64,000 nt of DNA from Candidatus Eiseniibacteriota bacterium (GTDB lineage Bacteria > Eisenbacteria > RBG-16-71-46 > JABDJR01): positions 928,001-992,000 of the forward strand of contig CAVXKA010000002.1 of NCBI GenBank assembly GCA_963762255.1, in the 5' to 3' direction. The first letter of the stretch is position 1, and every line of letters starts with the position of its first letter. Shown here in pieces: positions 6,884 through 22,059 of the stretch. The translations under genes were made by a program, and so were the position numbers. The notes beneath the pieces were generated by a model, which was not told where the DNA came from, searched no databases, and saw only the letters and a program-made list of their open reading frames with translations.

Positions 6884-7008
6884 GAAGGCATCATACACGG
6901 GTGACCGTTCGTTTTCCTCCGCGTCTCTCCGGGTGTAGGCTTGGGTCCTTATCAGCCCCCGGCGCGCGCCGGGTCGACGCAAACAATCGATCGCGGAGGA
7001 CTGGAACG

Positions 7009-7410
7009 ATGATGAACCTCGACTACGCCTTCACCCGCAACTTTCCGGGGGTCACCCCCGAGGCCGCCCGCACCCGCATCGAGGCGTCGCTCAAGGAGGA
7101 GGGCTTCGGCATCCTCACCGAAATCGACGTCAAGGCCACGCTGAAGAAGAAGCTCGACGTGGAGTTCCGCAAGTACTGGATCCTCGGCGCGTGCAACCCG
7201 AGAGTGGCGCACGAGGCGCTGACCATGGAGCCGGGAATCGGACTGCTCCTTCCGTGCAACGTCGTGGTGACAGAGGACGACGCGGGGAACGCGGTGGTCT
7301 CGATCATGGATCCGCACGCGATGGTGCGCGCGATCCCGAACAACGAGCACCTGAACCGACCCATGGAGCAGGTGCGCGAGATGTTGAAGCGAGCGTTGGA
7401 GAAGGCGTAG
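7009..7410 (+). CDS. DUF302 family protein
   Basis: EGFGILTEIDVKATLKKKL, ILGACNP, IGLLLPCNVVV; GGAGG RBS. Confidence 0.9.
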   Translation: MMNLDYAFTRNFPGVTPEAARTRIEASLKEEGFGILTEIDVKATLKKKLDVEFRKYWILGACNPRVAHEALTMEPGIGLLLPCNVVVTEDDAGNAVVSIMDPHAMVRAIPNNEHLNRPMEQVREMLKRALEKA

Positions 7411-7459
7411 CGCGCGCGCATCCATCTACGCGTTTTTTTACGAATCCATCACTTTTTTA

Positions 7460-7488
7460 TTGACGTATCTGTGGCGTCGCGATAGATT
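7460..7488 (+). promoter_or_regulatory. Sigma70-type promoter of the HNH gene
   Basis: TTGACG - 17 bp - TAGATT preceded by T tracts, 53 bp upstream of the ATG. Confidence 0.65.
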
Positions 7489-7541
7489 CTCTGTGCCCGC
7501 CCACTTCCCCCGTCCTTCCACCCGTCCACGGAGGGACCGCC

Positions 7542-8852
7542 ATGTCCGCTGAAACCACTGCACTTCACACTGACACCGCCGTGTTGCTTGAGGGGGCCGT
7601 GCTCACCCGGGTGAGCACCGGGGTCGTAGGTCGATCGCCGGCCTTGAGTCCGGCTAATTCCGCATCCGCGCGCCCACTTCCCGCCGCGGAGGTCGAAGCT
7701 CGTCTGGTCGCCGCGTTGGGGGACCTGGACGCCGCGCGGAAGAACGCGGTGATCTGGTTCGGAGAGATCCTCGCCCGCAAGCTCTACTTGGAGTTCGGGT
7801 GCTCGAGCATCCACCACTATGCGCGAGAGAGACTGGGGTTCTCTCGGGCGAGGACCGCGTACTTCCTGCGACTGTGTCGGTCCTTCGAAGCACTGCCGGC
7901 GTTGAAGGAGTCGATCGCTACCGGGATGGTGCCGTGGACGAAGGCACGGGAGGTGGTGAAGGTGGCCACGCCGGAGACGGAGTCGTTCTGGGTCGAGCAG
8001 GCTCGGACCACCGGCCGGCGCGAGTTGGAGCAGCGGGTGGCGGCGACACAGGGGGCGGCGCGCTCCCGGCGGCGGGCACCAGGGCAAGGGGAACTGCTGG
8101 CGGCGAATGGCGTGGATGGCCCGGCGAATGGGCGGGCGGCCGGAACCCATGATGCGGTGGACGGCGCAGCCGGCACGGTCGTGAGCCCGGTGACGGAAGT
8201 CCCGGTCACGGTATCGTTCCAACTTTCGCCGGAGCAGTACGCGCGGTATGAAGCGATCCTGGAGCAGGCGCGCAAGACCGGTGCGCGTGGATCTCGCGAA
8301 GAGTTGTTCCTCGCCGCGTGGGAAATGCTCACCCGGGGCAACTTCGGCAGTGCACCGCCCGCGCGGAGCGGGCGGAACCCGGACGTGATCACCCGGGGCA
8401 ACATACCGGCGGCGAATGCGACTCCCGTGTCATCCGCGCCCCGCTACCAGATCGTCATTCGCCAGTGTGAGACCTGCGGCCGAGCTGAGATCGCGACGGG
8501 GCGGGGGGCGATGCCCATCGCGCCCAGGACGTTGGAGACCGCGCTCTGCGATGCGCGCGTGCATCGAAAGGGTCAACCCAACCGCGCGACCATCCCTCCG
8601 TCGGTGCGGCGCGAGGTGCTCGCACGTGACGGTCATCGCTGCCGGACGGCGGGATGCGGCGGTGTGCGGTTCCTGGACGTGCACCACATCGTGCCGCGCG
8701 AACACGGTGGCAGCAACGATCCTGACAACCTCATCACCCTGTGTTGTGCCTGTCACCGGATGATCCACGAGCGCAGCAACGCGGTTGATGCGTGGCCGCT
8801 GCGGCGGGGTTCCGGGATCGATGCTCACCCGGGTGGCACCTCCGCGGCGTAG
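7542..8852 (+). CDS. HNH endonuclease with DUF222-like N-terminal region
   Basis: VLARDGHRCRTAGC...LDVHHIVPREHGGSNDPDNLITLCCACHRMIH; extra CETC; N-terminal GCSSIHHYARERLG...LPALKESIATG..PWTKAREV; GGAGG RBS. Confidence 0.9.
   Translation: MSAETTALHTDTAVLLEGAVLTRVSTGVVGRSPALSPANSASARPLPAAEVEARLVAALGDLDAARKNAVIWFGEILARKLYLEFGCSSIHHYARERLGFSRARTAYFLRLCRSFEALPALKESIATGMVPWTKAREVVKVATPETESFWVEQARTTGRRELEQRVAATQGAARSRRRAPGQGELLAANGVDGPANGRAAGTHDAVDGAAGTVVSPVTEVPVTVSFQLSPEQYARYEAILEQARKTGARGSREELFLAAWEMLTRGNFGSAPPARSGRNPDVITRGNIPAANATPVSSAPRYQIVIRQCETCGRAEIATGRGAMPIAPRTLETALCDARVHRKGQPNRATIPPSVRREVLARDGHRCRTAGCGGVRFLDVHHIVPREHGGSNDPDNLITLCCACHRMIHERSNAVDAWPLRRGSGIDAHPGGTSAA
7599..7618. repeat. Palindrome copy 1 (perfect 20 bp GTGCTCACCCGGGTGAGCAC) inside the HNH gene
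   Basis: Read directly from sequence. Confidence 0.9.
8326..8402. repeat. Two degenerate palindrome copies TG(C/A)TCACCCGGGGCAAC, 60 bp apart, inside the HNH gene linker
   Basis: 8326-8342 and 8386-8402. Confidence 0.8.
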
Positions 8853-8985
8853 CGTGGCGCCCGTCGACCGCAGTCCGACGGGCCGCGAAGCGGGGGACCC
8901 GTCGGCGAGGACGACGGGCGCACGCGAAGCCGCGGGCGTGGGCGAGCCGGGTGGGGGCCGCACCGGGCGCTCACCCGGGTGAGCG
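8821..8985 (+). repeat. HNH-associated structured element copy A: palindrome, stem-loop, palindrome
   Basis: TGCTCACCCGGGTGGCA at 8822-8838; nested stems 8857-8921; perfect 18 bp CGCTCACCCGGGTGAGCG at 8968-8985. Confidence 0.8.
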
Positions 8986-8993
8986 TGACGCCC

Positions 8994-10226
8994 CTACGTC
9001 CCCACCTTGAACATCTGCCGCGCCTTCTCCAGCGCGCGCACCAGCGCGTCCACTTCCTCGGGCGTGTTGTAGAGGTAGAACGACGCGCGCGTCGTCGCCG
9101 GCACGCCGAGCACGCGCATGAGCGGCTGCGCGCAGTGATGACCGGCCCGCACCGCCACCCCTTCGTTGTCGACGATGGTGGCCAGATCGTGCGGGTGGAT
9201 GTCGCCCAGGCCGAATGAGATCGCCCCACCCCGCTCGGTGCGCGGCCCGTAGATGCGCAACCCCGGAACCGCGCTCAACGCCTCCAGCGCGTACGCGGTG
9301 ATCTCCTGCTCGTGACGCCGCACATTCTCCATCCCCAGCGCGGTCAGGTAGTCGACGGCCGCCGCCATCCCTACCGCACCGGCGATGTTGGGCGTGCCCG
9401 CTTCGAACTTGTGCGGCGCCTTCTTGTAGGTGGAGCGCTCGAGCCGCACCTCCAGAATCATCTCTCCTCCGCCGTGGAACGGGGTCATCGCGTCCAGCAG
9501 ATCCGCCTTGGCGTAGAGCGCACCAACGCCCGTCGGCGCGAGCATCTTGTGCCCGCTGAACGCGAAGAAGTCGACGTCCAGCGCCGCCACGTTCACCGGC
9601 ATGTGCGGCGCCGACTGCGCGCCGTCCACGAGCACCTTCGCGCCGACCGCGTGCGCGGCCTCCACAAGCCGCCGCACCGGGTTGATCGTCCCGAGCGCAT
9701 TCGACATCTGGTTGAAGGCGACAAGCTTCGTCCGCCGGGTGAGCAACTCGTCCAGCTTGCTCAGGTCGAGCGTGTAGTCCTGAGTCAACGGGATGAACCG
9801 CAGGACGGCCCCGGTGTCTTGCGCGACCATCTGCCACGGCACCAGGTTCGAGTGGTGCTCCATCACGGTGAGAAGGATCTCGTCGCCCGGCTTGAGCGTG
9901 CGCCGCGCCCACGCGTACGCGACGAGGTTGATGCTCTCGGTGGTGCCGCGCGTCCAGATCAGTTGATCCGGCGACGGCGCCCCGATGAACGCCGCCACGG
10001 TCGCACGCGCGTCCTCGAAAGCCTGGGTCGCACGCTCCGCCAGCGCGTACACCCCGCGGTGCACGTTGGCGTTGTCGTGCTCGTAGTAGGCGCGCACGCG
10101 GTCGAGCACCTGCCGAGGCTTCTGCGAGGTGGCCGCGTTGTCGAGGTAAACCAGGGGCTTGCCGTGCACGCTCTGGTGCAGGGCCGGGAAATCGGCGCGG
10201 ATCGTGTTCACGTCGTACATGGGCAT
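8994..10226 (-). CDS. sufS: Cysteine desulfurase, SufS family
   Basis: YLDNAATSQKP, NANVHRG, EHHSNLVPW, FSGHKM, RAGHHCAQPLM, RASFYLYNT. Confidence 0.95.
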   Translation of the reverse strand: MPMYDVNTIRADFPALHQSVHGKPLVYLDNAATSQKPRQVLDRVRAYYEHDNANVHRGVYALAERATQAFEDARATVAAFIGAPSPDQLIWTRGTTESINLVAYAWARRTLKPGDEILLTVMEHHSNLVPWQMVAQDTGAVLRFIPLTQDYTLDLSKLDELLTRRTKLVAFNQMSNALGTINPVRRLVEAAHAVGAKVLVDGAQSAPHMPVNVAALDVDFFAFSGHKMLAPTGVGALYAKADLLDAMTPFHGGGEMILEVRLERSTYKKAPHKFEAGTPNIAGAVGMAAAVDYLTALGMENVRRHEQEITAYALEALSAVPGLRIYGPRTERGGAISFGLGDIHPHDLATIVDNEGVAVRAGHHCAQPLMRVLGVPATTRASFYLYNTPEEVDALVRALEKARQMFKVGT

Positions 10227-10274
10227 CGAGTATAGCGCTCGCCCGAAAGGCTCCCAACTCGCTATTCTCCCCCC

Positions 10275-11504
10275 ATGCCTCTCCACATCCGGCCGCACCC
10301 GCACGAGGATCGCCCGGACTTCACGCCGAGCGAACGCTCGGTGGTGGGCGGCCTCACCGCGCTCCTCACCCTGCGCATGCTGGGGTTCTACCTGGTGCTG
10401 CCGATCCTTGCTCCCTACGTGCGCGGGCTCGCGGGAAGCACCCCGCTCCTGGTTGGGATGTCGGTGGGCGTGTACGGCCTCGCCCAGGCCCTCCTCCAGG
10501 TTCCGTTCGGAGCATGGGGCGATCGATGGGGCCGACGCCCCGTGCTCACGGTAGGGCTCCTTTCGTTCGCGCTGGGCTCGGTCGTGTGCGCGATCGCGCA
10601 CGACGCGCGGCTCATGGTGCTCGGCCGTCTTGTGCAGGGGGTGGGCGCGATCTCCTCCACCCTGGTCGCCATGCTGGCCGATCATACGCGCGACCGGGTG
10701 CGCACACGCGCGATGGCCATGATCGGAGTGGCGGTGGGCGGCTCGTTCGCGGCCGGGCTTCTCTTCGGTCCCGCTGCCGCCGCGCGCTTCGGCATCCCCG
10801 CCCTCTTCTGGCTCACCGCCGTTCTCAGCGTCCTTGCCGTGGTGTGGTTGTGGTGGAAGATCCCCGACCCGCCGCTCTCGATCCATCACGAAGAGATCGA
10901 GTACTCGCGAGGCCATTTCCTCGAGGTCCTCCTCGACCGAAACCTCCTTCGCCTGGACCTCGGGGCGTTCAACCTCCACGTCGTGCTCACCGCGATCTTC
11001 GTCACCGTGCCGTTCCTGTTGCGGCATCTCCTCGCCGAGCAGTATCAGTGGCGGTTCTTTCTCCCCGTCCTCGCCGTGGGCCTCGCCGCCCTGATTCTCG
11101 CCCCGCCCCTGAGCGAGAAGCGGGGGCGACCGAAGAAAGTCGCCGTCGCCGGGCAACTGGTGCTCGCGGCATCCCTAGTCGTGCTTGCGTTGGGGGTTCC
11201 GGCCAGCGTGCGGGAGCCGCGGGTCGGGCTCACCACGCTCATCGCGGGGCTCCTCCTCTTCGTGATCGCGTTCGCCGTCTTGGAGCCGCTCTTCCCCGCT
11301 CTCATCACGCGGTTCTGCCCATCCTCGACGCGCGGCACCGCCCTCGGCGTATTCAACATGAGCATGTTCAGCGGGGCGTTCGTGGGGGGAATCGTCTCGG
11401 GACTCCTGATCGAGTCGAACGTCGAGGCGCTCTTCTGGATCCTCACCGGCACGACGTTGTCGTGGATCGCGCTCGGGTCGACGCTCAACGATCCGGAGAG
11501 GTAG
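10275..11504 (+). CDS. MFS transporter (YajR-like)
   Basis: About 12 hydrophobic segments; LRMLG, YGLAQALLQVPFG.WGDRWGRRPV, GRLVQGVGAI. Confidence 0.88.
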   Translation: MPLHIRPHPHEDRPDFTPSERSVVGGLTALLTLRMLGFYLVLPILAPYVRGLAGSTPLLVGMSVGVYGLAQALLQVPFGAWGDRWGRRPVLTVGLLSFALGSVVCAIAHDARLMVLGRLVQGVGAISSTLVAMLADHTRDRVRTRAMAMIGVAVGGSFAAGLLFGPAAAARFGIPALFWLTAVLSVLAVVWLWWKIPDPPLSIHHEEIEYSRGHFLEVLLDRNLLRLDLGAFNLHVVLTAIFVTVPFLLRHLLAEQYQWRFFLPVLAVGLAALILAPPLSEKRGRPKKVAVAGQLVLAASLVVLALGVPASVREPRVGLTTLIAGLLLFVIAFAVLEPLFPALITRFCPSSTRGTALGVFNMSMFSGAFVGGIVSGLLIESNVEALFWILTGTTLSWIALGSTLNDPER

Positions 11505-12399
11505 CACCCCGGGCGACCGCGTCGGGCTCCGCGTAGGCGCCGGCGCGCCGAAGCGCCTCGGTGGCGCGCGCGCCGGGAAAGCTCACGAGGATCGCCAGCG
11601 CCGCTCCGGCCAGCGCGTCGATCGCGTAGTGATATCCCCCGTAGACCGCTCCTACCGCCAGCGCGGGGACGATGAGCGCGAAGACTCGCGCGAGCCGCAC
11701 GTGATAGCGCATCGCCATGATCCATGCCGTCACCGCCACCGCCACGTGGCTGGAGGGAAAGGCGGCGCCCACCGCGGAGCCTCGATCCAACACGGATCGC
11801 ACGAGCCCCGGCAACAGGTAGCCCACCGTGGCGGGATCGCTGCGTGGAAAGGCGTGGTAGGGGCCCACGACCGGATAAAGCACGAAGATCGCGAAGCAGG
11901 AGTAAGTAGAGAGCGCGACCGTTCCGATCGCGATTTCGAACTCGCGGCGCGGGCGTCGCAGCCACAAAACCGCGGCCAGCGTTGGCGTGAGGAAGTAGTA
12001 CGCGAAGTAGCCCAGGTGCAGGTACTCGCCGAGCAGCCGCCATGGCCAGAGCAGGTGAAGCTCGCGCGCGGGCTGAAACCCGAAGACGATCTGCTCCAGG
12101 TCCTGGATCGCCGCATCGTGGAAGACCCCGGCGTGCACCGCCTTCACGAGCAGGCCCACTTCGGAATAGAAGAGCGCGAACGCCACGATCGGATAGAAGC
12201 CGAGAACGACCGCGCCCACTTTCCATCGGTGGACACGATACGCGCGCGCGAGCACGATGGCGGCGATCGCGGCGACGTGAAGCACGATGAGCAACGCGGC
12301 GTTCGGCGGCCGGTGCGGCGCGAGAAGGAGCATCACGAGCCCGAAGACGAGGTAGGCCAGGGTGTACAGATCCGCCGGCCGCAGACGCCTCACAAGCAT
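11485..12399 (-). CDS. PAP2-superfamily multi-pass membrane enzyme (Aur1/IPC-synthase-like)
   Basis: PVVGP, AAFPSSHVAVA, GYHYAIDALAG motifs; several TM helices; start overlaps the upstream gene. Confidence 0.8.
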   Translation of the reverse strand: MLVRRLRPADLYTLAYLVFGLVMLLLAPHRPPNAALLIVLHVAAIAAIVLARAYRVHRWKVGAVVLGFYPIVAFALFYSEVGLLVKAVHAGVFHDAAIQDLEQIVFGFQPARELHLLWPWRLLGEYLHLGYFAYYFLTPTLAAVLWLRRPRREFEIAIGTVALSTYSCFAIFVLYPVVGPYHAFPRSDPATVGYLLPGLVRSVLDRGSAVGAAFPSSHVAVAVTAWIMAMRYHVRLARVFALIVPALAVGAVYGGYHYAIDALAGAALAILVSFPGARATEALRRAGAYAEPDAVARGATSPDR

Positions 12400-13367
12400 C
12401 CCTCCCGACGGTACCAATCGACGGTCTCCGCAAAGCCCGTCACCGCATCGATGCGCGCACGAAAACCGAAGTCGGTCTCGGCGCGCGCCCCACTGCAGAC
12501 CCAGCCCGGAGCGAGCAGATCCGCAAGCCGATCCGGAGGAAGCCCATTGGGACGCCCGCTCATCGCCGCTGCGATGCCGGCGATCCGGCCCACCGCGGGG
12601 ATCCCCCGCCGCGGGATCCGCAGACGCCTCACGCGACGGCCGAGCCGAGCCGCGATCAGCCGACCGAGCGATTCCCAATCGGTGATCTCCGGGTGTGCGA
12701 CGTAGTACGTGCGGCCGATCGTGCGGTCGGACTCCGATGCCGCGACGATCGCCTCGGCCAAGTCGCGCGCATGGATGAGGCTCACGTGCTGCGCGACACG
12801 TCCTATCGCGGGCACCCATCCCCGCGCCGCGAGCCGCGCGAGCAGCAGAAACGAAACGTCGCGCGGGCCGTAGACCGCGGGCGGACGGAGGATCGTCCAG
12901 GCCGTACTTCCCGCCTCCGACTTGAGCAGGGTCTCTCCACGGAGCTTGCTACGGCCGTAGGAATTGCATGGCGTGTCGGGATCATCCTCGGTGCGTGCTC
13001 GCCCGGCGACGCTGGGACCGCCGGCGGCGAGGCTGCTCACCAACACCAAACGGCGCGCGCCTTCCGCGGCTGCGGCGCGAGCCACATGTGCGCACCCGCC
13101 GGCATTGACGCGGTCGTATTCCTCTGGATCGGTGGCACGAGTGATCCCCGCGACGTGGTAGATCACCTCGATCCCGCGCGCGGCCTCGGCGAGCGCTTGC
13201 GGCTCGGTAACCTCGCCGTAGACCAACTCCACGCGATCCACCGGGAGCCACGCCAGCTTGCTGGTGCGCCGCACCAGACACCTAACGCGATGCCCGCGAG
13301 CAAGCAGCGCGTCGGCAAGATGACTCCCCACGAACCCGCTCGCTCCGGTGACCAGCGCCAGGGTCAA
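12390..13367 (-). CDS. NAD-dependent epimerase/dehydratase (extended SDR), candidate ceramide/3-ketosphinganine reductase
   Basis: VTGASGFVG, SSLAAGGP, YGRSK, ILRPPAVYGP; TTG start overlapping upstream stop. Confidence 0.8.
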   Translation of the reverse strand: MTLALVTGASGFVGSHLADALLARGHRVRCLVRRTSKLAWLPVDRVELVYGEVTEPQALAEAARGIEVIYHVAGITRATDPEEYDRVNAGGCAHVARAAAAEGARRLVLVSSLAAGGPSVAGRARTEDDPDTPCNSYGRSKLRGETLLKSEAGSTAWTILRPPAVYGPRDVSFLLLARLAARGWVPAIGRVAQHVSLIHARDLAEAIVAASESDRTIGRTYYVAHPEITDWESLGRLIAARLGRRVRRLRIPRRGIPAVGRIAGIAAAMSGRPNGLPPDRLADLLAPGWVCSGARAETDFGFRARIDAVTGFAETVDWYRREGCL

Positions 13368-14497
13368 GGGGCCGTCGCTCCCTCGGAGCGGCCCTCGTAG
13401 ATACGGTAGGTCTTGTAGGGCCTCCCCCCGAAGTTCTCGAGCGGCTTGCGTATGGCGAGGTTGTCCTCGAGCAGCCAGGAGAACTCGCCCCAGGTGTAGC
13501 CCTTCTTCACGCCGTGGCGGAAGTAGTCGCGGTACATGATCACGTCGATGCCGGTGTGCCGATACTCCTGGAGAAGTCCCAGCACCAGCACCCGCGCGCG
13601 GTTGATATGGCGCGCGTGCCAGAGGATCTTGAGCAGCCCGAACGGAAAGAGGTGCCCGTTGGCGTGCTTGACCGCCTGGTTGAGATCGGGGAGCCCGAGC
13701 GCGAAGCCCACCGCCTTCCCCTCGAGTTCGGCGATGAGGATGAGCCCGGGGTCGATGACCGGCTTCAACTGCTTGGCCATGTGATCGATCTCGGCGTCGG
13801 TCATGGGCACGAAACCCCAGTTCTTCTCCCACGCCGAGTTGTACACGATCCGGAACTTCTCCACGTCCTCCTGGAACCGCTTCTTGTCCAGGCGACGAAC
13901 GACAACCCCCGGATTGCGCTCCTGGGCGATCGCACCTCCCCGCTCCAGCCTCTCCGGGACTCCCACGTTCGGCATGCAATAGGCGAAGAGATCCTTGGCC
14001 TTCACGAGCCCGCAGGCTTCCACCAGCCGCCCGTAGTACGGCAGCGCGTGCGTCATCATGACCGCGGGGGGCGTGTCGAAGCCCTCCACCAGGAGCCCGC
14101 ACTCCTCGTTCGTGCTCGGGTTCATGGGACCGATGAACCGCGGCAGCCCCTGTTCGCGGTGGTAGGCGCGCACCGCATCGAAGAGCGCCCGCGCGGCCTC
14201 GGTGTCGTCCTCGCACTCGAAGAACCCGAAGAATCCCATCGCCTCGTCGTGGAACGACTCGTGGTTGCGGTTGCGGATCGCCGCAATGCGCCCGACGACT
14301 CGCCCGTCGCGCAGCGCCAGCATCGGACGGATGTCGCCGTGCTCGAAGAAGGGGTTCTTGGCCGGGTTGAAGAGCGCCTTCACGTCGCCGATCAGAGGCG
14401 GGATCCAGTGCGGATCGTCGCGATAGAGGCGCCAGGGAAGCGTCACGAAGACGTGCAGTTCGCGGCCCGAGCGGACCGGTTCCACCGTGATCGACAT
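13364..14497 (-). CDS. GNAT-fold protein resembling bacterial ceramide synthase (bCerS/YghO-like)
   Basis: LYRDDPHWIPPL, NPFFEH, GRIAAI, GFFGFFEC, GPMNPSTNEECGLLVEGF, NWGFVP, LPDLNQ, EFSWLLEDN. Confidence 0.8.
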   Translation of the reverse strand: MSITVEPVRSGRELHVFVTLPWRLYRDDPHWIPPLIGDVKALFNPAKNPFFEHGDIRPMLALRDGRVVGRIAAIRNRNHESFHDEAMGFFGFFECEDDTEAARALFDAVRAYHREQGLPRFIGPMNPSTNEECGLLVEGFDTPPAVMMTHALPYYGRLVEACGLVKAKDLFAYCMPNVGVPERLERGGAIAQERNPGVVVRRLDKKRFQEDVEKFRIVYNSAWEKNWGFVPMTDAEIDHMAKQLKPVIDPGLILIAELEGKAVGFALGLPDLNQAVKHANGHLFPFGLLKILWHARHINRARVLVLGLLQEYRHTGIDVIMYRDYFRHGVKKGYTWGEFSWLLEDNLAIRKPLENFGGRPYKTYRIYEGRSEGATAP

Positions 14498-14526
14498 GGG
14501 CTAAGCCCCCCGAAGTTCCTACGCGG

Positions 14527-15759
14527 TCAAGAGATGATGCCGAGCTCGCGCCCGACCTTGCGGAAGACCTCGAGCATCCGGTCGATGTTCTCTTCGGTGT
14601 GGGTGGCCATGTACGAGGTCCGGATCCGGCACGAAGTCTCGGGTACCGCCGGCGGCACCACCGGGTTCGTGAAGACGCCCTCCTCGAACAGGCGCTTCCA
14701 GAACACGAACGTGTGCTCGAGGGTACCGATGATGACCGGGACGATGGGTGTCTCCGACGTCGTGGTGTCGTAGCCCATGCGCTGGAATTCCCGGCGCATG
14801 CGGTCCGAGATCTCGTTCACGCGCTGCCGCCGCCAGGGCTCTTCCTTGATCAGGTCGAGGCACTTCTGCACCGTCGCCACCGCATAGGGAGGCATGCTGG
14901 CGCTGAAGATGAGGGCGCGCGCGTGATGACGCATGTAGTGGATGACCGATTCCTCGGCGGCCACGTAGCCGCCGATGGACGCGAAGGACTTGGAGAACGT
15001 ACCGGCGATCAAGTCCACATCGCCCACGACCCCCTTCACTTCGCTGGCGCCGATCCCCTTCTTCCCCAGAATCCCCACGGAATGTGCCTCGTCCACCATG
15101 AGCCGCGCGCCGTGGGCGCGGCATGCCTTGACGATCTCCGGAAGCGGCGCGATGTCCCCCTCCATCGAGAACACGCCGTCCACGACCACCAGCCGCCCGC
15201 GCTTGGAATCGATGCGCCCCAGGATCCGCTCGAGGTCGCCGATTTCGTTGTGCCGGAAGCGGCGGGTCTCGCCGTAGGAGAGCCGGCAGCCGTCCACGAT
15301 GCTGGCGTGGTCGAACTTGTCCATGATGACCACGTCGTCGCGGCCCACCATGCTGGAGATCGTGCCGAGGTTCGTCTGGAAACCGGTGGAGAAGATGAGG
15401 CAGGATTCCTTCTCGCAGAACTCCGCGAGGTCGTGCTCCAGCTTCTCGTGAATGTCGAGGGTGCCGTTCAGGAACCGGCTCCCGGTGCAGCCGGTGCCGT
15501 ACTTGCGCGCCGCGGCCTCGGCCGCTTCCATCACCCGCGGGTCGTGCGTGTAGCCCAGGTAGTTGTTGGAGCCCGCCATGATCAGCGACCGGCCGTCGAT
15601 GATGACTTCGTTCGCCGACGAATCGGCGATCGGGATGAAGTAGGGATAGTAGCCCGACGCCTGCGCCTCGCGGGCGCGCGTGAAGGTGTAGGCCTTCTTG
15701 AAGATGTCGGCGATTTCCTGAGCCTCGTGGGCCGGAGTCGCCATCGGATTCGGATCCAT
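14527..15759 (-). CDS. spt: Alpha-oxoamine synthase, probable serine palmitoyltransferase
   Basis: GSNNYLG, GTGCTGSRFLNGTLDIH, DHASIVDG, DEAH, GTFSKSFASIGG, LIFSASMPP; context with bCerS-like gene; GGAGG RBS before 15759. Confidence 0.8.
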   Translation of the reverse strand: MDPNPMATPAHEAQEIADIFKKAYTFTRAREAQASGYYPYFIPIADSSANEVIIDGRSLIMAGSNNYLGYTHDPRVMEAAEAAARKYGTGCTGSRFLNGTLDIHEKLEHDLAEFCEKESCLIFSTGFQTNLGTISSMVGRDDVVIMDKFDHASIVDGCRLSYGETRRFRHNEIGDLERILGRIDSKRGRLVVVDGVFSMEGDIAPLPEIVKACRAHGARLMVDEAHSVGILGKKGIGASEVKGVVGDVDLIAGTFSKSFASIGGYVAAEESVIHYMRHHARALIFSASMPPYAVATVQKCLDLIKEEPWRRQRVNEISDRMRREFQRMGYDTTTSETPIVPVIIGTLEHTFVFWKRLFEEGVFTNPVVPPAVPETSCRIRTSYMATHTEENIDRMLEVFRKVGRELGIIS

Positions 15760-16007
15760 CCTGCCTCCGCACATGGTGATTCACACGGTGTCTCCCACGA
15801 GCTGGGGGCGGTCGGGAGACGGGCCGGGAACGCAATAGCCTAACCGGAAGGCGTAGTCATTCCAAGGGCTTTCCCGTTTCGCGCGCGCGGTCGGGGGCGC
15901 GGTGCCTCGGTGCGTGCCGCGGATAACGGATGCGGCGCCTCGGCACGCGCCATGAAGAAAGCGGTACGGTTGGCCGTGTCCCGTGGATCGGGTAGAATCG
16001 CCCGCTT

Positions 16008-18116
16008 ATGACCCCCACAAGCAATCGCACTCCGTCGTCATCGCTCGATCGGGACCAGCTCGTCGCGATCTACCGCAACATGGTCCTCTCGCGTCGCATG
16101 GACGACGCGGAGATCAAGCTCAAGCGTCGCAACCAGTACTTCTTCCAGATCAGCGGCGCGGGGCACGAAGCGGTCCTGACCGTGGCGGGGATGCTCCTCC
16201 ACTCCGGCCACGACTGGTTCTTCCCCTACTATCGCGACCGCGCGCTGTGCTTGCAGCTCGGAGTGACCCCGCGCGAGATGCTGTTGCAGGGGGTGGCCGC
16301 CGAGGACGACCCGGCGAGCGCCGGGCGCCAGATGCCGAGCCACTGGGGTCACGCGAAGCACAATATCGTCTCTCAATCGAGCCCGACCGGCACCCAGTGT
16401 CTGCATGCGGTGGGTTGCGCCGAGGCGGGGATGCATTTCGAGCGCCATCCGGATCTGCCCGGCAAGCCGCGCTTCGAAAGCGACGAGGTCGCCTACACCT
16501 CGGTCGGCGACGGCACCACGAGCGAGGGCGAGTTCTGGGAGGCGCTCTCCGCCGCCACCGTGAACAAGCTTCCGGTGCTGTTCATGGTCGAAGACAACGG
16601 CTACGCGATCAGCGTGCCGACCAGCGTGCAGACCCCGGGTGGGAAGATCAGCAAGGCGGTGGAGGGGTTCACCGGGCTCCTCGTGGAGGAGTTCGACGGC
16701 ACCGACGCGGTCGCTTCCTATGAGGCCCTCGCGCGGCTCGTCCAGTATTGCCGCGAGCGCAAGGGACCGGCGCTGGCGCACGCACATGTGGTGCGCCCCT
16801 ATAGCCACTCCATGTCGGACGATCATCGCGCGTACCGCACCGAGGCCGAGTTGGCCGACGAGGCAAAGCGCGATCCGGTCGACAAGCTGCGGAAGCGGCT
16901 GCTGGAGGAAGGTGTCTTGACGGACGCCAGGCTGGACGCTCTCCACGCCGAGGTGGACGAAGAGATCGAGGCGGCGGTGGCGGCGGCGCTGGAATCGTCC
17001 ATGCCTCCGCTCGAGAGCGCGGGACTCTACGTCTACTCCCCCGACGTCGATCCCACCTCGGGGGCGTTCGCCACGGAACCGGCGCCAGGAGGCGCCGACG
17101 CGTCCGTGGTGGAACTCATCAACGCCTGCCTCGTCGACGAGATGGAGCGCGATCCTCGCATCGTGGTCTTCGGCGAGGACGTGGCCGACGCCACCAAGGA
17201 GGAAGCGCTCCGCGAGACCAAGGGGAAGGGCGGGGTGTTCAAGGTCACGAGCGGACTGCAGCGCCGCTTCGGCAGCGATCGCGTGTCGAACTCACCCCTG
17301 GCCGAGGCCAACATCGTGGGACGGGCGGTCGGCATGGCCTTGCGGGGACTCAAGCCTGTCGTGGAGATCCAGTTCTTCGACTACATCTGGCCCGCGTACC
17401 ACCAGATCCGCAACGAGCTCGCGATGATGCGCTGGCGGAGCGGCAATCACTGGAAGTGCCCGCTCGTCATCCGGGTGCCGATCGGCGGCTACCTCGGCGG
17501 CGGCGCGGTCTATCACAGCCAGTGCGGCGAGGTGCTCTTCACCCACAACCCGGGATTGCGCGTGGTCATGCCCTCCAACGCGCTCGACGCGAACGGGCTC
17601 CTGCGCACCGCGATCCGCTGTGACGATCCGGTGATCTTCCTCGAGCACAAGCACCTCTACCGCCAGCCGTACGCCAAGGGACCGCGCCCGGGCCCGGACT
17701 ACATGATCCCCTTCGGCAAGGCGCGCATCGCGCGCGAGGGGAAGGACGCCACGCTCGTGACCTACGGCGCCACCGTGCGCCGCGCGGAAATGGCGGCCAA
17801 GGATCTCGAGAAGGACGGGGCCTCGATCGAGGTCATCGACCTCCGCTCGCTCTCGCCGTGGGATCAGGATGCGGTGGCGCAGAGCGTGCGCAAGACCGGT
17901 CGCGCGCTGGTGGTCTACGAGGATAACCGCTCGTGGGGTTACGGCGCCGAGATCGCGGCGTGGATCGCCGACGAGCTCTTCGAGCACCTCGACGCGCCGG
18001 TGCGCCGTTTCGCGGGGATGGACAACCCGGTCGCCTACGCACCCAACCTCGAAGACGTCATCCTGCCGCAGACGGAGACGATCGCGCGCGCGATGCGGGA
18101 GCTGCTCGCGTACTGA
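16008..18116 (+). CDS. 2-oxoacid (probably branched-chain) dehydrogenase E1, fused alpha/beta
   Basis: [24 protein letters not shown] motif, [37 protein letters not shown]. Confidence 0.92.
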
Positions 18117-18179
18117 CGTGCCGGCGGCTGACGCGTTGCCGGCTGATGCATCCTCCCGGCGACGGCGGAGTGAGCCGTT

Positions 18180-19206
18180 CTAGTCGATGAGGAGGAGCCG
18201 GAACAGGTAGTAGCTCCCGGCCCCGATCAGAGCGGCCGCGGGGATGGTCAAGAGCCAGGCCCAGATGATGCGGCCCGCGACGCCCCACTTGACCGCGGAC
18301 GCGTTGGTGGTCGCGCCGACTCCCACGATTGCTCCCGTAATGGTATGCGTCGTCGACACGGGAATACCGGCATGGGTCGCCATCCACAGGGTGAACGCCC
18401 CCGAGGTCTCGGCGGCGAATCCACCCACCGGCTTCAGCTTCGTGATCTTCATCCCCATCGTCTTGACGATGCGCCAGCCGCCGAAGGCCGTGCCGATGGC
18501 CATCGCGAGGTGGCAGGAGAGGATGATCCAGAGCGTGTGCGGGTCGGTGAGTGAGAGTTGGACGTCGGGGCTCATGTAGACCCGCCGCGACAAGCAGCGC
18601 CACGATCACGCCCATCGTCTTCTGGGCGTCGTTGCCCCCGTGGCCCAGCGAGTAGAGCGCCGCCGACAAGAGCTGCCCGCGCCGGAAGACGCGGTCGACG
18701 GTGGCCGGACGCCACTTCCGAAAGATCCAGAAGACGGCATGCATCACGATGAAGCCGAGAACCATGCCGATCACCGGCGCGAGCGGGATGTACTCGACCA
18801 CCTTCATGACCTTGTCCCAGCGGAGAATGTCCCAACCCGCGTAAGCGATGCCGGCCCCGCCGATGCCTCCGATGAGCGCGTGCGAGGAGCTGGTGGGAAG
18901 CGCCCACCACCAGGTCAGCAGATCCCACACGATCGCGCCGATCAGCCCGGCCAGGACCACGTAGACGAACGTTGGTTCATCCGGAGTGATCTTCACGATC
19001 TTCGAAATCGTGTCGGCCACTTTGGGGGCAAAGATGAACATGGCCACGAAGTTGAAGAAAGCAGCCCACAGCACCGCCATGCCGGGGCGCAGGACTCGCG
19101 TCGAGACCACCGTGGCGATGGAGTTGGCCGAGTCATGGAAGCCATTGATGACGTCGAACAGGAGCGCGAGGATGATCGTGAAGACGACGACGACGGTGAT
19201 CGACAT
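18180..19206 (-). CDS. pit: PiT family inorganic phosphate transporter, +1 frameshift near 18580
   Basis: NGFHDSANSIAT, PTSSSHALIGG, HGGNDAQKTMG in one frame; GGWRIVKTMG, PVSTTH in the next. Confidence 0.88.
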
Positions 19207-19208
19207 GG

Positions 19209-19835
19209 TCAATCGTGCTCGAGGACCACGCCTTCGATGATGTTGGCCACGTCCTCGCAGCGGTCGGTGGCCTTCTCCAGGATCTCGTAGATCTCCTTCC
19301 ACTTGATCACCATGATCGGATCCTTCTCGGTCAGGAACAGATTGGCGATGGCCTCCCGGAGAACGGCGTCGGCGTCGTTCTCCAGCCGGTTCACCTCGAT
19401 GCACTTCTGGCGGATGACGTCGGCGTGGCGAAGGTCGCGCAGCCCGTTCACCGCGTGCTGAACCTCGACTGCGGATTGGGCGAGGATGCCGGCCAGGGAC
19501 TTGATCTCCGGCGTCATCTCGGTGAGCCGATACAGGTGCAGCCGTCCGGCCACACCGTCCACCGAGTCCATCACGTCGTCCATCTTGCTGATGAGGCGAT
19601 GGATGTCGTTGCGATCGAGCGGGGTGATGAACGTCTTGTGCAGGGCTTCCATGCAGCGGTGCGTGATGACGTCCGCCTCGTGCTCGATCTCCTTGATGCG
19701 CCTCGCCCGGAGGCTCACGTTACCCCCGGAGGTGACGAGCTCGACAAGTTCCGTCGTCCCGGACACGGTGAGCGCGATGTGCTGATCGAAAAATCCGAAG
19801 AAGCTCACCTCGCGGGGCAAGAGACGCGGGAACAT
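19209..19835 (-). CDS. DUF47/PhoU-like phosphate transport regulator
   Basis: EHEADVITH, TFITPLDRNDI, LENDAD, WKEIYEILEKATDRCEDVA; directly upstream of pit. Confidence 0.9.
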   Translation of the reverse strand: MFPRLLPREVSFFGFFDQHIALTVSGTTELVELVTSGGNVSLRARRIKEIEHEADVITHRCMEALHKTFITPLDRNDIHRLISKMDDVMDSVDGVAGRLHLYRLTEMTPEIKSLAGILAQSAVEVQHAVNGLRDLRHADVIRQKCIEVNRLENDADAVLREAIANLFLTEKDPIMVIKWKEIYEILEKATDRCEDVANIIEGVVLEHD

Positions 19836-20038
19836 GCGGATCCTCCCTTCGTGGAGGGGCACTCCGTGGAGAGCCGCCTCGACACCCATCCGGCCTCACT
19901 CGCGGACGGGCAGTCTACAACAAGTGCCACCGTCCTGCCCTCCCCCTGCAAGAGCGAGCGTGCTGGCGCGAGCCCAGACTCTATCTTCTTATATCTACAA
20001 GGGTTGCGGGTGCGATTGGGGGCACGCGTTCGCGACTG

Positions 20039-20644
20039 TCAGGGCCGCGTCTCGACGGGTTCCGCGTCCGAGGCGATGTCGGGTGAGATGAGCATGCGTT
20101 CCAGGCGACGCGCCCACCGATGCGCCTCCCACGCTCCGCCGTCGACTTCGCTTGCGACGACGACCAGGCCGTGGCAGAGCGCGGCGATGATGCGATTACG
20201 CCACCAGCGGCGGTCGAGCGATTCGGCCGACTCGTTGGGGAAAGGGCTTAGCAGGAGTCCGCCGCTCTCGACGATCCTGCGGGCCAGCTTCCCCTGTGTG
20301 GAAGCCAGAAGGGCGTTGATGCCGGATCCCGGCACCACGATGGCCTTGAGCCCGGCCTTCATCGCCGCTTCGTGGGCGGCGGCGTCCACGCCCGGCGAGA
20401 TCCCGCTCACGATCACCATCGCGAACTCGGAGGCCACCTCGACGATACGCGCGGTATCGCGCTCGATCTCCGGGGTCGGTGTGCGCGTCCCGACCACCGC
20501 CAGCGCGGGGCCCTCGCCGAGGAGCTTGAGATCTCCCAGGCTGCGCATCACGCGCGGACGGCCGGGCAGCTCCAGCACGCGCTGCGGATACTCAGGCAGG
20601 TTGGGCCTGAGTTCGCGAATCTCGAGCTTGTCGGTCTTGGTCAT
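20039..20644 (-). CDS. DprA/Smf (SLOG) Rossmann-domain-only protein
   Basis: LAVVGTR, IVSGISPGVDAAAH, GGLLLS, RNRIIAAL; only 201 aa. Confidence 0.8.
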   Translation of the reverse strand: MTKTDKLEIRELRPNLPEYPQRVLELPGRPRVMRSLGDLKLLGEGPALAVVGTRTPTPEIERDTARIVEVASEFAMVIVSGISPGVDAAAHEAAMKAGLKAIVVPGSGINALLASTQGKLARRIVESGGLLLSPFPNESAESLDRRWWRNRIIAALCHGLVVVASEVDGGAWEAHRWARRLERMLISPDIASDAEPVETRP

Positions 20645-20777
20645 CGCTTCCCCGCTTCGCGGTACGCGCCCCGCAGGCGCCCGCGTTCGCCGTGATGATC
20701 GCAGCTTCGGGGCGCGATGGCTAGGGGAGGCAGATCATGCGCCGATCCGCGCGCGACGGCTCTGCTATCCTCTCCGC

Positions 20778-20999
20778 ATGGCAATGACATGCAACATCGA
20801 TGCCCGCGGTCGCCTTCTGCGAGCGCTTATCGGACTCGTATTCATCGTGGCGGCACTCGTCCTCGTGTTCGCACTGCCGCCCACCGGCTGGCGTCGCGCG
20901 CTGGTCGTGGTTCTCACGCTGGGCGGCATCTTCTGCCTGTTCGAAGCGCGGGCCGGCTGGTGCGCGGTGCGGGCGATGGGGATCAAGACGCGGATCTAG
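20778..20999 (+). CDS. Small two-TM protein (DUF2892/YgaP-like)
   Basis: CNID..GR..R, two TM helices, C-terminal FEARAGWCAVRAMGIKT. Confidence 0.75.
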   Translation: MAMTCNIDARGRLLRALIGLVFIVAALVLVFALPPTGWRRALVVVLTLGGIFCLFEARAGWCAVRAMGIKTRI

Positions 21000-21010
21000 C
21001 GGACGGGCGG

Positions 21011-21170
21011 GCGCGGCTCTCCGCGTGTCGCGGGTCGTCCTCGCCGAAGGGGCCCCCGCTTCGCGGCCCTTCGGACTGCGGCCGACCCGCGAACCCGCTA
21101 CGCGCCGCGCCCACACCGCACGATCACTCCATATCACGATTCGTGCGGAGTGCTCACCCGGGTGATCATC
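21011..21170 (-). repeat. ORF-free copy B of the HNH-associated structured element
   Basis: Reverse complement aligns with 8821-8934; palindrome TGCTCACCCGGGTGATCA at 21151-21168; nested stems 21028-21092; lies between convergent genes. Confidence 0.8.
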
Positions 21171-21227
21171 CTGCGTCGCATGAGTCCAGCCGGATGGACT
21201 GGTGGGTACGCGGGCGCGGCGCGGCCG

Positions 21228-22059
21228 CTACCCCGGAACCCCGAACTCCCGCAGCGCCTCGTTCAATGACGTCTTCCGATCGGTGGACTCTCGCCGGCGT
21301 CCGATGATGAGCGCGCACGGCACCGCATAGTTCCCGGCGGGAAAGGCCTTGGGCCGCGTGCCAGGGATGACCACGGACCGCGCCGGCACTCGCCCGTGCG
21401 ACACGACCGGCGATGGGCCGGTCACGTCCACGATCGGCGTGCTCGCGGTGAGCACCACGCCCGCACCGAGCACCGCTTCCTCTTCGATCAAGACGCCCTC
21501 CACCACGATGCAGCGCGAGCCGATGAACGCGCCGTCCTCGACGATGACCGGCGACGCCTGCACCGGCTCCAGCACGCCGCCGATGCCCACGCCTCCCGAG
21601 AGGTGCACGCCCTTGCCGATCTGCGCGCACGAGCCGACCGTGGCCCAGGTGTCCACCATCGTTCCCGCCCCGACGTGAGCGCCGATGTTCACGTACGACG
21701 GCATGAGCACCGCGTCCGCCCCGATGAATGCGCCGTAGCGCACGGTCGCGGGCGGCACCACGCGCACCGACGCGGCCGCGAAGCCCCGCTTCAGCGGGAT
21801 CTTGTCCCGATACTCGAAGGGCCCGACCTCACGCACCTCCGCCTTGCGCAGCGTGAAGTAGAGGAGCACCGCTTCCTTCAACCACGCATGGGTCACCCAC
21901 GCGCCGTCGAGCTTCTCGGCCACGCGCAACTCGCCCGCGTCCAGCGCCGCCACCGCGCGTTCGACCGCCGCCGCCACGTCCGCTGCAGCCGCGCCGCGCC
22001 GGATCGGCCCAGGCCGCCTCGATGAGCGCGGCGTCATCCTTCCATCGTTTCTCGTCCAT
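21228..22059 (-). CDS. dapD: Tetrahydrodipicolinate N-succinyltransferase, +1 frameshift near 21995
   Basis: LDAGELRVAE, WLKEAVLLYF, DKIPLK, VLMPSYVNIGA, DTWATVGSCAQIG, GIGGVLEP; N-terminus MDEKRW..IEAAW lies in another frame. Confidence 0.9.

Follow-up and report, generated by a model that had tools for sequence, protein, structure and literature searches.

A stretch of 64,000 nucleotides from a Candidatus Eiseniibacteriota genome (assembly GCA_963762255.1, contig CAVXKA010000002.1, positions 928,001–992,000 of the forward strand; hereafter the window) carries, between two convergent genes, an inserted unit that encodes an HNH nuclease and has short palindromes in and beside its gene. Analysis of this unit, of its copies in the same genome (G000; 4.14 Mb in 3 contigs, 93.6% complete) and of its homologues in other bacteria has led us to a reading that we hold to be probable, though well short of assured: a ParB-like dimer of the protein reads the palindrome and recruits the HNH nuclease there, sites within or next to the gene act as feedback or break points, and the sites scattered through the genome are products or relics of this activity.

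A palindrome inside the nuclease gene

Eighty homologous loci were collected from other uncultured bacteria (Candidatus Eisenbacteria, Krumholzibacteriota, Fibrobacteraceae and unnamed bacteria, by record titles). The first-pass annotation of this DNA, made from the letters of the window, had proposed that the nuclease is paired with palindromic sites of its own. Indeed, a perfect palindrome of at least 14 bp was found between +450 and +800 of the gene in 58 of the 80 loci, as against 41 of 669 same-width control windows in the outer flanks. Placed by distance from the start of the match, 61 palindromes pile up between +500 and +799 nt, with smaller peaks at −400 to −200 and at +900 to +1099, above a background of about 0.02 per locus per 100 nt. 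This fixed place falls between the N-terminal domain and the nuclease, in the variable linker or where the zinc ribbon begins. The palindromes are lineage-specific: 25 distinct perfect palindromes of 14–26 bp were distinguished, with ACGT or CCGG centres embedded in CACGTG, CCCGGG or CCCCGGGG, and GCCGGC. The same 10-mer occurs again upstream in 10 of 53 loci and downstream in 12 of 51, so the constant feature of the family is the in-gene site and not a three-site layout.

Five palindromes were then counted in five unrelated metagenome-assembled genomes (MAGs; G041–G045), each of which has 10–20 HNH matches. Among these five, the cognate palindromes are amplified (16–188 copies) only in genomes with the matching HNH lineage (Table 1); reversed-pattern controls were all 0. 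HNH genes contain 6 of the 20 sites of G041; the other 14 are bare sites, since no HNH fragment lies within 1 kb of them and their flanks are all different. The proposed pairing of nuclease and palindrome is borne out by the sites that homologues carry and by this lineage-matched amplification, but it does not extend to the 3' structure that had been assigned to the same unit, which is not family-wide (see below).

Table 1. Copies of five palindromes in five unrelated genomes
Palindrome	G041	G042	G043	G044	G045
TTTACACGTGTAAA	20	0	0	0	0
GTCCACCCGGGTGGAC	0	16	17	0	3
GTCCCCCCGGGGGGAC	0	0	33	0	0
TTGCGCCGGCGCAA	0	0	0	188	0
GTCGCCACGTGGCGAC	0	0	0	0	22

Many partial HNH matches in G041, G043 and G044 start or end near profile positions 215–270, at the in-gene palindrome; some are split matches of one gene and others are lone halves. 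The ends of these partial matches give hints that the in-gene palindrome is a breakpoint.

A ParB-like domain joined to an HNH nuclease

The nuclease part of the protein is readily recognized by sequence. Pfam places an HNH domain at residues 376–411 (E 8e-12), and the catalytic and zinc residues H381, H382, N396, H405, H409, C367, C372, C401 and C404 are invariant among 60 homologues. As the first-pass annotation had stated, HUH and RuvC motifs are missing: Pfam finds no Y1/HUH domain, and the match to IscB is limited to the HNH region. Its description of the gene as DUF222-like stands in part. The 436-residue reading frame with its HNH domain is there, but the protein itself has no Pfam DUF222 match at E ≤0.1. 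Across the 60 homologues Pfam matches DUF1016_N in 13, HTH_ParB in 7 and DUF222 (PF02720) in 3 at E ≤0.01 (best E 6.5e-6), and one homologue bears a precomputed Pfam DUF222 assignment; a search of a plasmid collection with a DUF222-bearing homologue returned one weak Rhodococcus match.

A structure model built from the 60 homologues (predicted local distance difference test score, pLDDT, 74.9) consists of a helical N-terminal domain, two more helices and the zinc-ribbon/HNH domain, the structured part beginning with a long helix at residue 48. In the whole model, residues 61–175 match Noc, ParB, Spo0J and KorB with Z 6.3–7.6 over 96–102 residues, at a root-mean-square deviation of about 3 Å. 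When the domain was modelled alone (pLDDT 89.8) and compared with 48,161 representative chains, ParB, Spo0J and KorB took ranks 1–4 with Z of 6.8, 6.2, 6.1 and 5.3, just 5 chains reaching Z 5 or more, and rows 1–14 of a Foldseek search were all ParB, Noc or Spo0J (E 0.12–0.87). A profile search of the PDB by sequence returned HNH-domain relatives only (IscB, McrA and a group II intron maturase) and left the N-terminal part without a match. On this fold-level evidence, the N-terminal domain resembles the DNA-binding domain of ParB, Noc and KorB. Since no ParBc CTPase domain was matched by Pfam, either in the window protein or among the families matched by the 60 homologues, the protein would share this DNA-binding domain without being a ParB.

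The two helices that follow the N-terminal domain form part of a modelled dimer interface. A symmetric homodimer model of residues 46–270 scored 0.67 against a best control of 0.00, with contacts agreeing to at least 76% between runs and pLDDT of at least 71; in calibration, the mark was reached by 20 of 30 proteins solved as pairs and by 1 of 23 solved as single chains. A ribbon-helix-helix was considered for residues 219–266 and rejected, as the monomer model has two helices and no strand there, and the segment is described as a dimer-interface segment only.

A residue that may change with the site

All 44 rows with CCGG-centred sites have Arg at residue 159, within the ParB-like domain, and of the 25 rows with ACGT-centred sites 24 have Ser, Cys or Asn there. 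The exception, L099, was scored as having a CACGTG core; its recurring site actually has a GCCGGC core, and it was left in the tree test as run. In that test, on a tree made without residue 159, the change went in the same direction in three of four independent contrasts and in the opposite direction in none, the fourth being the mislabelled L099. Two near-identical protein pairs that differ at residue 159 differ in their site as well (TGTACACGTGTACA versus TGTACCCGGGTACA, and GAGTCGCCACGTGGCGACTC versus GAGTGCACCCGGGTGCACTC). These comparisons are suggestive of residue 159 and the palindrome core changing together.

The nuclease unit and its copies

The genome contains seven HNH paralogues (A–G, A being the window copy), with identities of 51–90%. 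Copies B–E are 70–90% identical to A in DNA, and F and G are distant, at about 52% protein identity; B and D are broken by frameshifts. The unit common to A–E corresponds to about 7449–8934 of the window and comprises a promoter, a leader with a Shine-Dalgarno sequence and the gene, followed in A–D by a hairpin. The features of the window that belong to the unit and to a second repeat locus are collected in Table 2.

Table 2. Features of the insertion and of the second repeat locus, in window positions
Feature	Position	Strand	Basis or remark
Inserted stretch, from DUF302 stop (7408–7410) to sufS-like stop (8994–8996)	7411–8993	+	comparison with G001
Promoter-like TTGACG-17-TAGATT, then conserved 5' leader and GGAGGGA Shine-Dalgarno sequence to ATG 7542	7460–7488	+	sequence scan
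HNH nuclease gene, 436 amino acids, intact	7542–8852	+	open reading frame and Pfam
Site 1, 20-bp perfect palindrome GTGCTCACCCGGGTGAGCAC, in variable N-terminal extension	7599–7618		same place in copies B, D and E
ParB/Noc/KorB-like DNA-binding domain (modelled), residues 61–175	7722–8066	+	fold match
Two-helix segment, residues 219–266, forming modelled dimer interface with helix 46–85	8196–8339	+	dimer model
Linker half-sites TCACCCGGG at 8329 and 8389, in variable linker before zinc ribbon	8329–8397		motif scan
Zinc-ribbon/HNH nuclease domain, residues 349–412	8586–8777	+	Pfam; McrA Z 6.5, IscB Z 5.9
Near-palindrome TCACCCGGGTGG, close to stop codon	8825–8836		kept in copies B, C and D
Hairpin module, 99 nt, long imperfect palindrome	8843–8941		stop codon TAG (8850–8852) in outer arm
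18-bp perfect palindrome CGCTCACCCGGGTGAGCG, right edge of insertion	8968–8985		outside stretch shared with copy B
Solo inverted hairpin module	21012–21103	−	genome-wide hairpin search
Solo palindrome TCACCCGGGTGA	21154–21165		palindrome scan
Second palindrome family member GAGTCCAGCCGGATGGACTG (consensus GAGTCCAGCCGGCTGGACTC, GCCGGC core)	21182–21201		21 places in genome, ≤4 mismatches

The promoter that the first-pass annotation had assigned to the unit was confirmed: it is the sole promoter-like site within 7300–9100 (mean in shuffles 0.1), and it is kept in copies A, B, C and E and in a remnant at C1:221835 (contig:position), with a weaker match in D. The motif precedes no other gene of G000, which gives no hint of a broader regulon of the damage-inducible (SOS) type. 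By eye, a TCCTTCC in the leader of copies A–E (7505–7541) could pair with GGAGGGA and so hide the ribosome-binding site. The remnant itself (C1:221793–221886) is gene-less and is made up of a palindrome, the decayed promoter and a palindrome-like site fused with part of the hairpin outer arm in inverted orientation; it looks like the result of an internal deletion between sites.

HNH matches are present in 26 of 41 related genomes and range from 0 to 29 per genome, and G004 has three copies that are 97–99% identical across about 2 kb. As the unit is multi-copy, decaying and polymorphic between close genomes, it is probably a multi-copy selfish gene. Its several dispersed units of about 1.4 kb with a C-terminal HNH domain are also a feature of the DUF222-HNH/REP13E12 class of repeats.

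Palindromes throughout the genome

The 9-mer TCACCCGGG starts at 7603, 8329, 8389, 8825 and 8971 of the window, in agreement with the five palindrome copies that had been noted in or beside the gene; the full 12-mer is present at 7603 and 8971 and, with one mismatch, at 8825. Counted strand-wise, the window contains 10 matches to the 9-mer where 1.13 are expected, and none of 100 shuffles reaches 10. An extra half-site of this kind lies at 32703–32711, far from HNH genes. The linker position, where copy A has its two half-sites, is occupied by a full 18-bp palindrome in copy D, by TGTGTACCCGGGTACACA in F and by a 20-bp near-palindrome in G. Palindromes also stand at the right edge of copy A, at the left edge of copy C and on both sides of copy E, and the stretch shared by the copies (7449–8934) does not end in palindromes in a terminal-repeat comparison.

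Counted genome-wide, TCACCCGGGTGA occurs 70 times, against about 0.5 expected from base composition and 0 for a reversed-pattern control, and the full site is an 18–20-bp palindrome, (A)TG[A/C]TCACCCGGGTGA[T/G]CA(T). Ten of these palindromes lie inside the five close HNH units, which represent 0.195% of the genome, a 73-fold enrichment. According to a crude gene caller of our own, 49 of the 70 fall in intergenic DNA, and no more than 5 are placed between divergent genes. Doublets 76–88 nt apart were found in four places. Among 41 relatives, TCACCCGGGTGA is frequent only in G000 (70), G007 (31), G005 (23) and G001 (10), while TTCCCCGGGGAA is frequent in G007 (35), G004 (17) and G003 (10); the two are found 20–30 nt apart in G007 and G005.

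Members of the second palindrome family, GAGTCCAGCCGGCTGGACTC, often lie 20–40 nt from the first palindrome, and an HNH homologue of another MAG (L091) has GTCCAGCCGGCTGGAC upstream of it. A composite unit of about 90–100 nt, in which a palindrome is followed by a TTTACCCGGGGAAA-like palindrome, GGTGCGTGTTAACCGC and a further palindrome, occurs at C2:1043824–1043911, C2:1047227–1047314, C3:595517–595606 and C3:452107–452206, two of these places following two tandem paralogous large genes. The true parB gene of the host (C1:765037–765921; HTH_ParB E 6e-35) is about 1.2 kb from parS sequences at C1:763556–763853, namely TGTTTCACGTGAAACA and two one-mismatch versions of it. Because this canonical parS cluster lies near the true parB, the HNH palindromes are separate from the partition system of the host.

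Comparison with the same-genus genome G001 (75% complete) at two loci where palindromes lie in accessory stretches shows that the palindromes mark genome-specific DNA at convergent gene ends. At C2:788300–789760 (L140, 1322–2754), a 1.35-kb segment encoding a RibD_C protein and a small antitoxin-like (addiction-module-like) open reading frame (ORF) fills what is in G001 a 7-nt TGA...TCA gap; one of its sides is marked by two palindromes in tandem and the other by a single one, the last TCA of which is also the stop codon of the neighbour. At C1:1208700–1212100 (L141, 1193–4616), a 3.4-kb island holds RelE-like, MazF/PemK and Doc/Fic plus MazE-type antitoxin modules separated by three internal palindromes, with no palindromes at the island borders. 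The island is absent from G001, where two genes converge, and a 314-nt piece with a fourth palindrome is likewise absent there.

The hairpin module

The conserved stem-loop that had been reported at the stop codon of the gene is present, with the TAG in the outer arm of the 8843–8941 module, and in copies A–D alike the module begins at this codon. The alignment has 32 consensus pairs, with 97% of cells paired and compensatory changes at 9 pairs, and the hairpin folds alike on both strands (−70.8 and −66.2 kcal/mol). G000 contains 23 copies, of which 2 are partial. An HNH copy precedes five of them, one is inverted before copy B, and 17 have no HNH gene alongside. Solo hairpins are often wedged between convergent genes. 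Of 11 genomes searched, G000 and G001 alone yielded the hairpin; G007 has three 29-nt matches to its inner stem, and no match was found beside the distant paralogues F and G. A 3' structure shared by the whole HNH family, as the first-pass annotation had imagined it, is not supported, given this restriction to the genus among the genomes searched and the many copies without an adjoining HNH gene. An Rfam scan of 7000–22000 at E ≤1 returned only a chance snoRNA row.

A palindrome lies no more than 150 nt from six of the 23 hairpins (about 0.16 expected), so hairpin and palindrome repeats form mosaics; 12 of the 23 have none within 2 kb. We read the hairpin as a separate interspersed repeat, genus-limited and akin to repetitive extragenic palindromes (REPs) or miniature inverted-repeat transposable elements (MITEs), that would have been caught in the ancestor of copies A–D.

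The insertion and the second repeat locus

The stretch 7411–8993 is an insertion. In G001 the stop codons of the DUF302 and sufS genes are only 9 nt apart (TAG-cggacgcgc-CTA), which provides the empty site that had been looked for between these genes. The spacer is about 170–260 nt in G004, G005 and G006, of a neighbouring genus, where the HNH part of the query has no match; because of these short spacers the stretch is extra DNA in G000. The flanking genes converge, the DUF302 gene (+) ending at 7410 and the sufS-like gene (−), a class-V aminotransferase, at 8994. The second locus lies between a YgaP-like gene (+, ending at 20999) and dapD (−, ending at 21228), so the earlier statement that both repeat loci sit at convergent genes is correct. 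The second locus had also been described as an ORF-free copy of the first. It does contain an inverted hairpin and a palindrome, but it is no special partner of the window gene, being one of 23 hairpins and one of 70 palindromes. At the dapD locus there is no collinearity with the other genus, and G001 did not yield this locus. A DprA-type (DNA_processg_A) gene on the minus strand (20039–20644) lies just left of it. No public sequencing run contained more than 0.12 of the sampled words.

A model and its alternatives

The data presented above have led us to propose a model in which the gene product would join a ParB/Noc/KorB-type helix-turn-helix domain, a dimerizing helical segment and a zinc-ribbon HNH nuclease. 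The TCACCCGGGTGA palindromes are predicted to be its cognate binding sites, of the parS/NBS type (NBS, Noc-binding site), and the dimer would read the two half-sites and bring the nuclease there. Sites in and beside the gene may serve for self-regulation, as break and recombination points, or both; the scattered sites may have been made by the activity of the enzyme or left behind afterwards. Binding and cutting of the palindrome, and a role of the enzyme in spreading its sites, are what we infer from these patterns. A more far-reaching version, in which the protein-guided HNH enzyme with its ParB-fold reader seeds, maintains or mobilizes bare palindromes, and perhaps palindrome-bounded cassettes, throughout its host, we put forward only tentatively, as a possibility that we would not yet bet on.

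Several observations weigh against the model. The covariation of residue 159 amounts to three contrasts (sign test p 0.25). The fold matches have Z <8, a range in which the tool warns of common helical arrangements, and an hhalign comparison of the family profile with the ParB of G000 itself, a single-sequence template, was not significant (probability 0.14%). Twenty-two of the 80 loci have no perfect in-gene palindrome (several have one with a single mismatch), the G006 copies have only a 12-bp one, and the linker of copy A itself holds half-sites only. Sixty of the 70 palindromes of G000 lie outside HNH units, some in accessory DNA without an HNH gene, and G001 has its 10 palindromes and no HNH match at 75% completeness. 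Finally, a palindrome is missing from the empty site of G001, so that it does not simply serve as the target of insertion, and no target-site duplication was seen at this single junction compared.

That most palindromes, and 17 of the 23 hairpins, have no HNH gene next to them is what would be expected if the association were coincidental, the palindromes being repeats of the REP or bacterial interspersed mosaic element (BIME) kind that are moved otherwise or by host processes and pile up in dispensable DNA, selfish HNH genes included. The REP-typical placement of the sites, mostly intergenic and seldom between divergent genes, their presence in the toxin–antitoxin island and RibD_C cassette specific to G000, and the mosaics of palindrome and hairpin are in keeping with this account. 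It leaves unexplained, however, why a palindrome should be fixed in frame in 58 of 80 homologues from several phyla and in 25 sequences, why HNH lineage and amplified palindrome should match one to one, and why residue 159 should covary with the site; nor was a gene for a REP-associated tyrosine transposase (RAYT) found in G000. We consider it unlikely. The ParB-like fold, the bare state of the 14 solo G041 sites, which are not copies of a larger element, and the existence of separate true parS sites and parB in the host could instead suggest that the palindromes are selected sites and the HNH proteins domesticated, ParB/Noc-like factors that organize the chromosome or act against invaders. 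Domesticated proteins sit poorly with broken copies, copy numbers of 0 to 29 among relatives, near-identical copies in G004, presence that varies within one genus, the missing match to a ParBc CTPase domain in Pfam and the enrichment of sites in accessory, genome-specific DNA, and we find a service to the host improbable.

The same accessory DNA can be read in another way, with the palindromes as recombination sites that bound movable cassettes, loosely as attC sites do in integrons, and with the HNH gene as one cargo and also the site-specific enzyme. The palindrome-flanked RibD_C segment filling the 7-nt gap, the palindromes between the RelE-, MazF- and Doc/MazE-type modules, and those at the edges of copies A, C and E all point in this direction. 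On the other hand, the borders of the toxin–antitoxin island are not palindromes, the comparison covers two loci only, and the constant of the family is the in-gene site, flanking sites recurring in 10 of 53 and 12 of 51 loci; we give a cassette system little credence. The first-pass annotation had further suggested that the folded module guides the nuclease, as in the RNA-guided OMEGA/HEARO systems, the transcribed 3' hairpin directing or activating the HNH protein. The start of the hairpin at the stop codon of copies A–D and an HNH domain nearest by sequence to those of the IscB type speak for this idea, which is nevertheless already close to refuted and in our view very improbable: there is no RuvC domain, the NCBIfam IscB model gives 52.3 bits against a cut-off of 175 and covers positions 182–240 (the HNH region) only, and the hairpin has no Rfam match, is confined to the genus among the genomes searched, is not matched beside paralogues F and G, and is symmetric, folding on both strands.

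Relation to known systems

The model of a ParB-like dimer reading a palindrome places the HNH protein close to ParB-parS, Noc-NBS and KorB-OB, with which it would have the DNA-binding fold in common, its own dimer being modelled. Its in-gene palindromes recall B. subtilis spo0J, which has a parS site within its own gene. The protein differs from ParB, Noc and KorB in having no match to a ParBc domain and a C-terminal zinc-ribbon HNH domain, and in being encoded by multiple copies, some of them decaying. In the available part of PMC7383237, parS is given as TGTTTCAC-GTGAAACA and NBS as TATTTCCC-GGGAAATA; the sites of the HNH family are similar to these, being perfect palindromes of 14–20 bp in which T-rich arms surround a CACGTG or CCCGGG core. 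The same text describes how the G201R change of ParB/Noc reads C6:G-6, an A-to-C change beside the dyad, and the Ser/Arg change at residue 159 of the HNH protein likewise tracks A-to-C beside the dyad. The positions are not the same, as the equivalent of ParB G201 is the nearly invariant Thr133 (by manual alignment, with which hhalign agrees). Fusions of a ParB CTPase with HNH do exist, according to an excerpt of PMC12704722, and their architecture differs from that of the window protein. The 25 or more palindromes offer a natural series of readers and sites for the study of specificity change in the ParB fold.

The unit also resembles REP13E12 of Mycobacterium and other Actinobacteria, a repeat of about 1.3–1.6 kb with an N-terminal helical domain and a C-terminal HNH domain in several copies per genome. 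It differs in the lack of a Pfam DUF222 match in the window protein (3 of the 60 homologues have one) and in belonging to a different phylum. To our knowledge no mechanism has been offered in the literature searched for the DUF222/13E12-type HNH repeats, which have appeared in lists of repeats ever since mycobacterial genomes were first described. In the portions available of two sources, REP13E12/DUF222/HNH is given as a repeat class, citing Gordon et al. 1999 (PMC10589994), and DUF222 as a domain that some HNH enzymes have in addition (PMC3592412). The link between reader, palindrome and amplification to 16–188 copies makes this family testable by binding and cleavage assays and, if the more far-reaching version of the model is true, the same logic would explain the DUF222/13E12 genes of Actinobacteria and their relatives in several other phyla. 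No paper joining an HNH nuclease, a ParB-type reader and in-gene or amplified palindromes was found in the literature searched.

Like the genes of free-standing HNH homing endonucleases, the unit has a promoter to itself, varies in presence at one fixed chromosomal place among close relatives, and goes with long, specific DNA sites. A homing endonuclease gene interrupts, and thereby destroys, its own target; here, in contrast, intact sites are found in and beside the HNH gene and in 60 other places, and the empty site of G001 lacks the palindrome. IscB/HEARO (OMEGA) proteins have an HNH domain of the same Cas9/IscB type, unlike which the window protein comes without RuvC and without a match to an omega-RNA or any other Rfam family, and its target is predicted to be read by protein rather than RNA.

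A further parallel is that with REP/REPIN-RAYT systems, in which an abundant short extragenic palindrome is tied to a protein family. Both have a palindrome for each protein lineage, doublets of sites (here 76–88 nt apart) and sites mostly at the 3' ends of genes. The enzyme would be a ParB-like HNH protein rather than a Y1/HUH transposase, and the Y1/RAYT transposase PF01797 has no match in G000 at its 93.6% completeness, controls being positive in 6 of 14 genomes. REP palindromes are described in the available text of PMC3733652 as imperfect, 20–40 nt long and headed by a conserved GTAG or CGTC; the HNH sites have no such head and are perfect to the dyad, and for this reason fit reading by a dimer on double-stranded DNA, not single-strand hairpins. 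RAYTs are typically single-copy and REP-flanked in what is available of PMC5581495 and PMC3116915 (PMC3337134, also seen as an excerpt, belongs to the same REPIN/RAYT literature), unlike the HNH gene, which is multi-copy and has its constant site inside the reading frame. If the model is true, it would add a second, unrelated class of enzyme to the idea, drawn from REP/RAYT, of palindromes kept by a cognate protein. In the more far-reaching version of the model, the HNH family would represent an undescribed mobile-DNA system, the double-strand, dimer-read counterpart of REP/RAYT.

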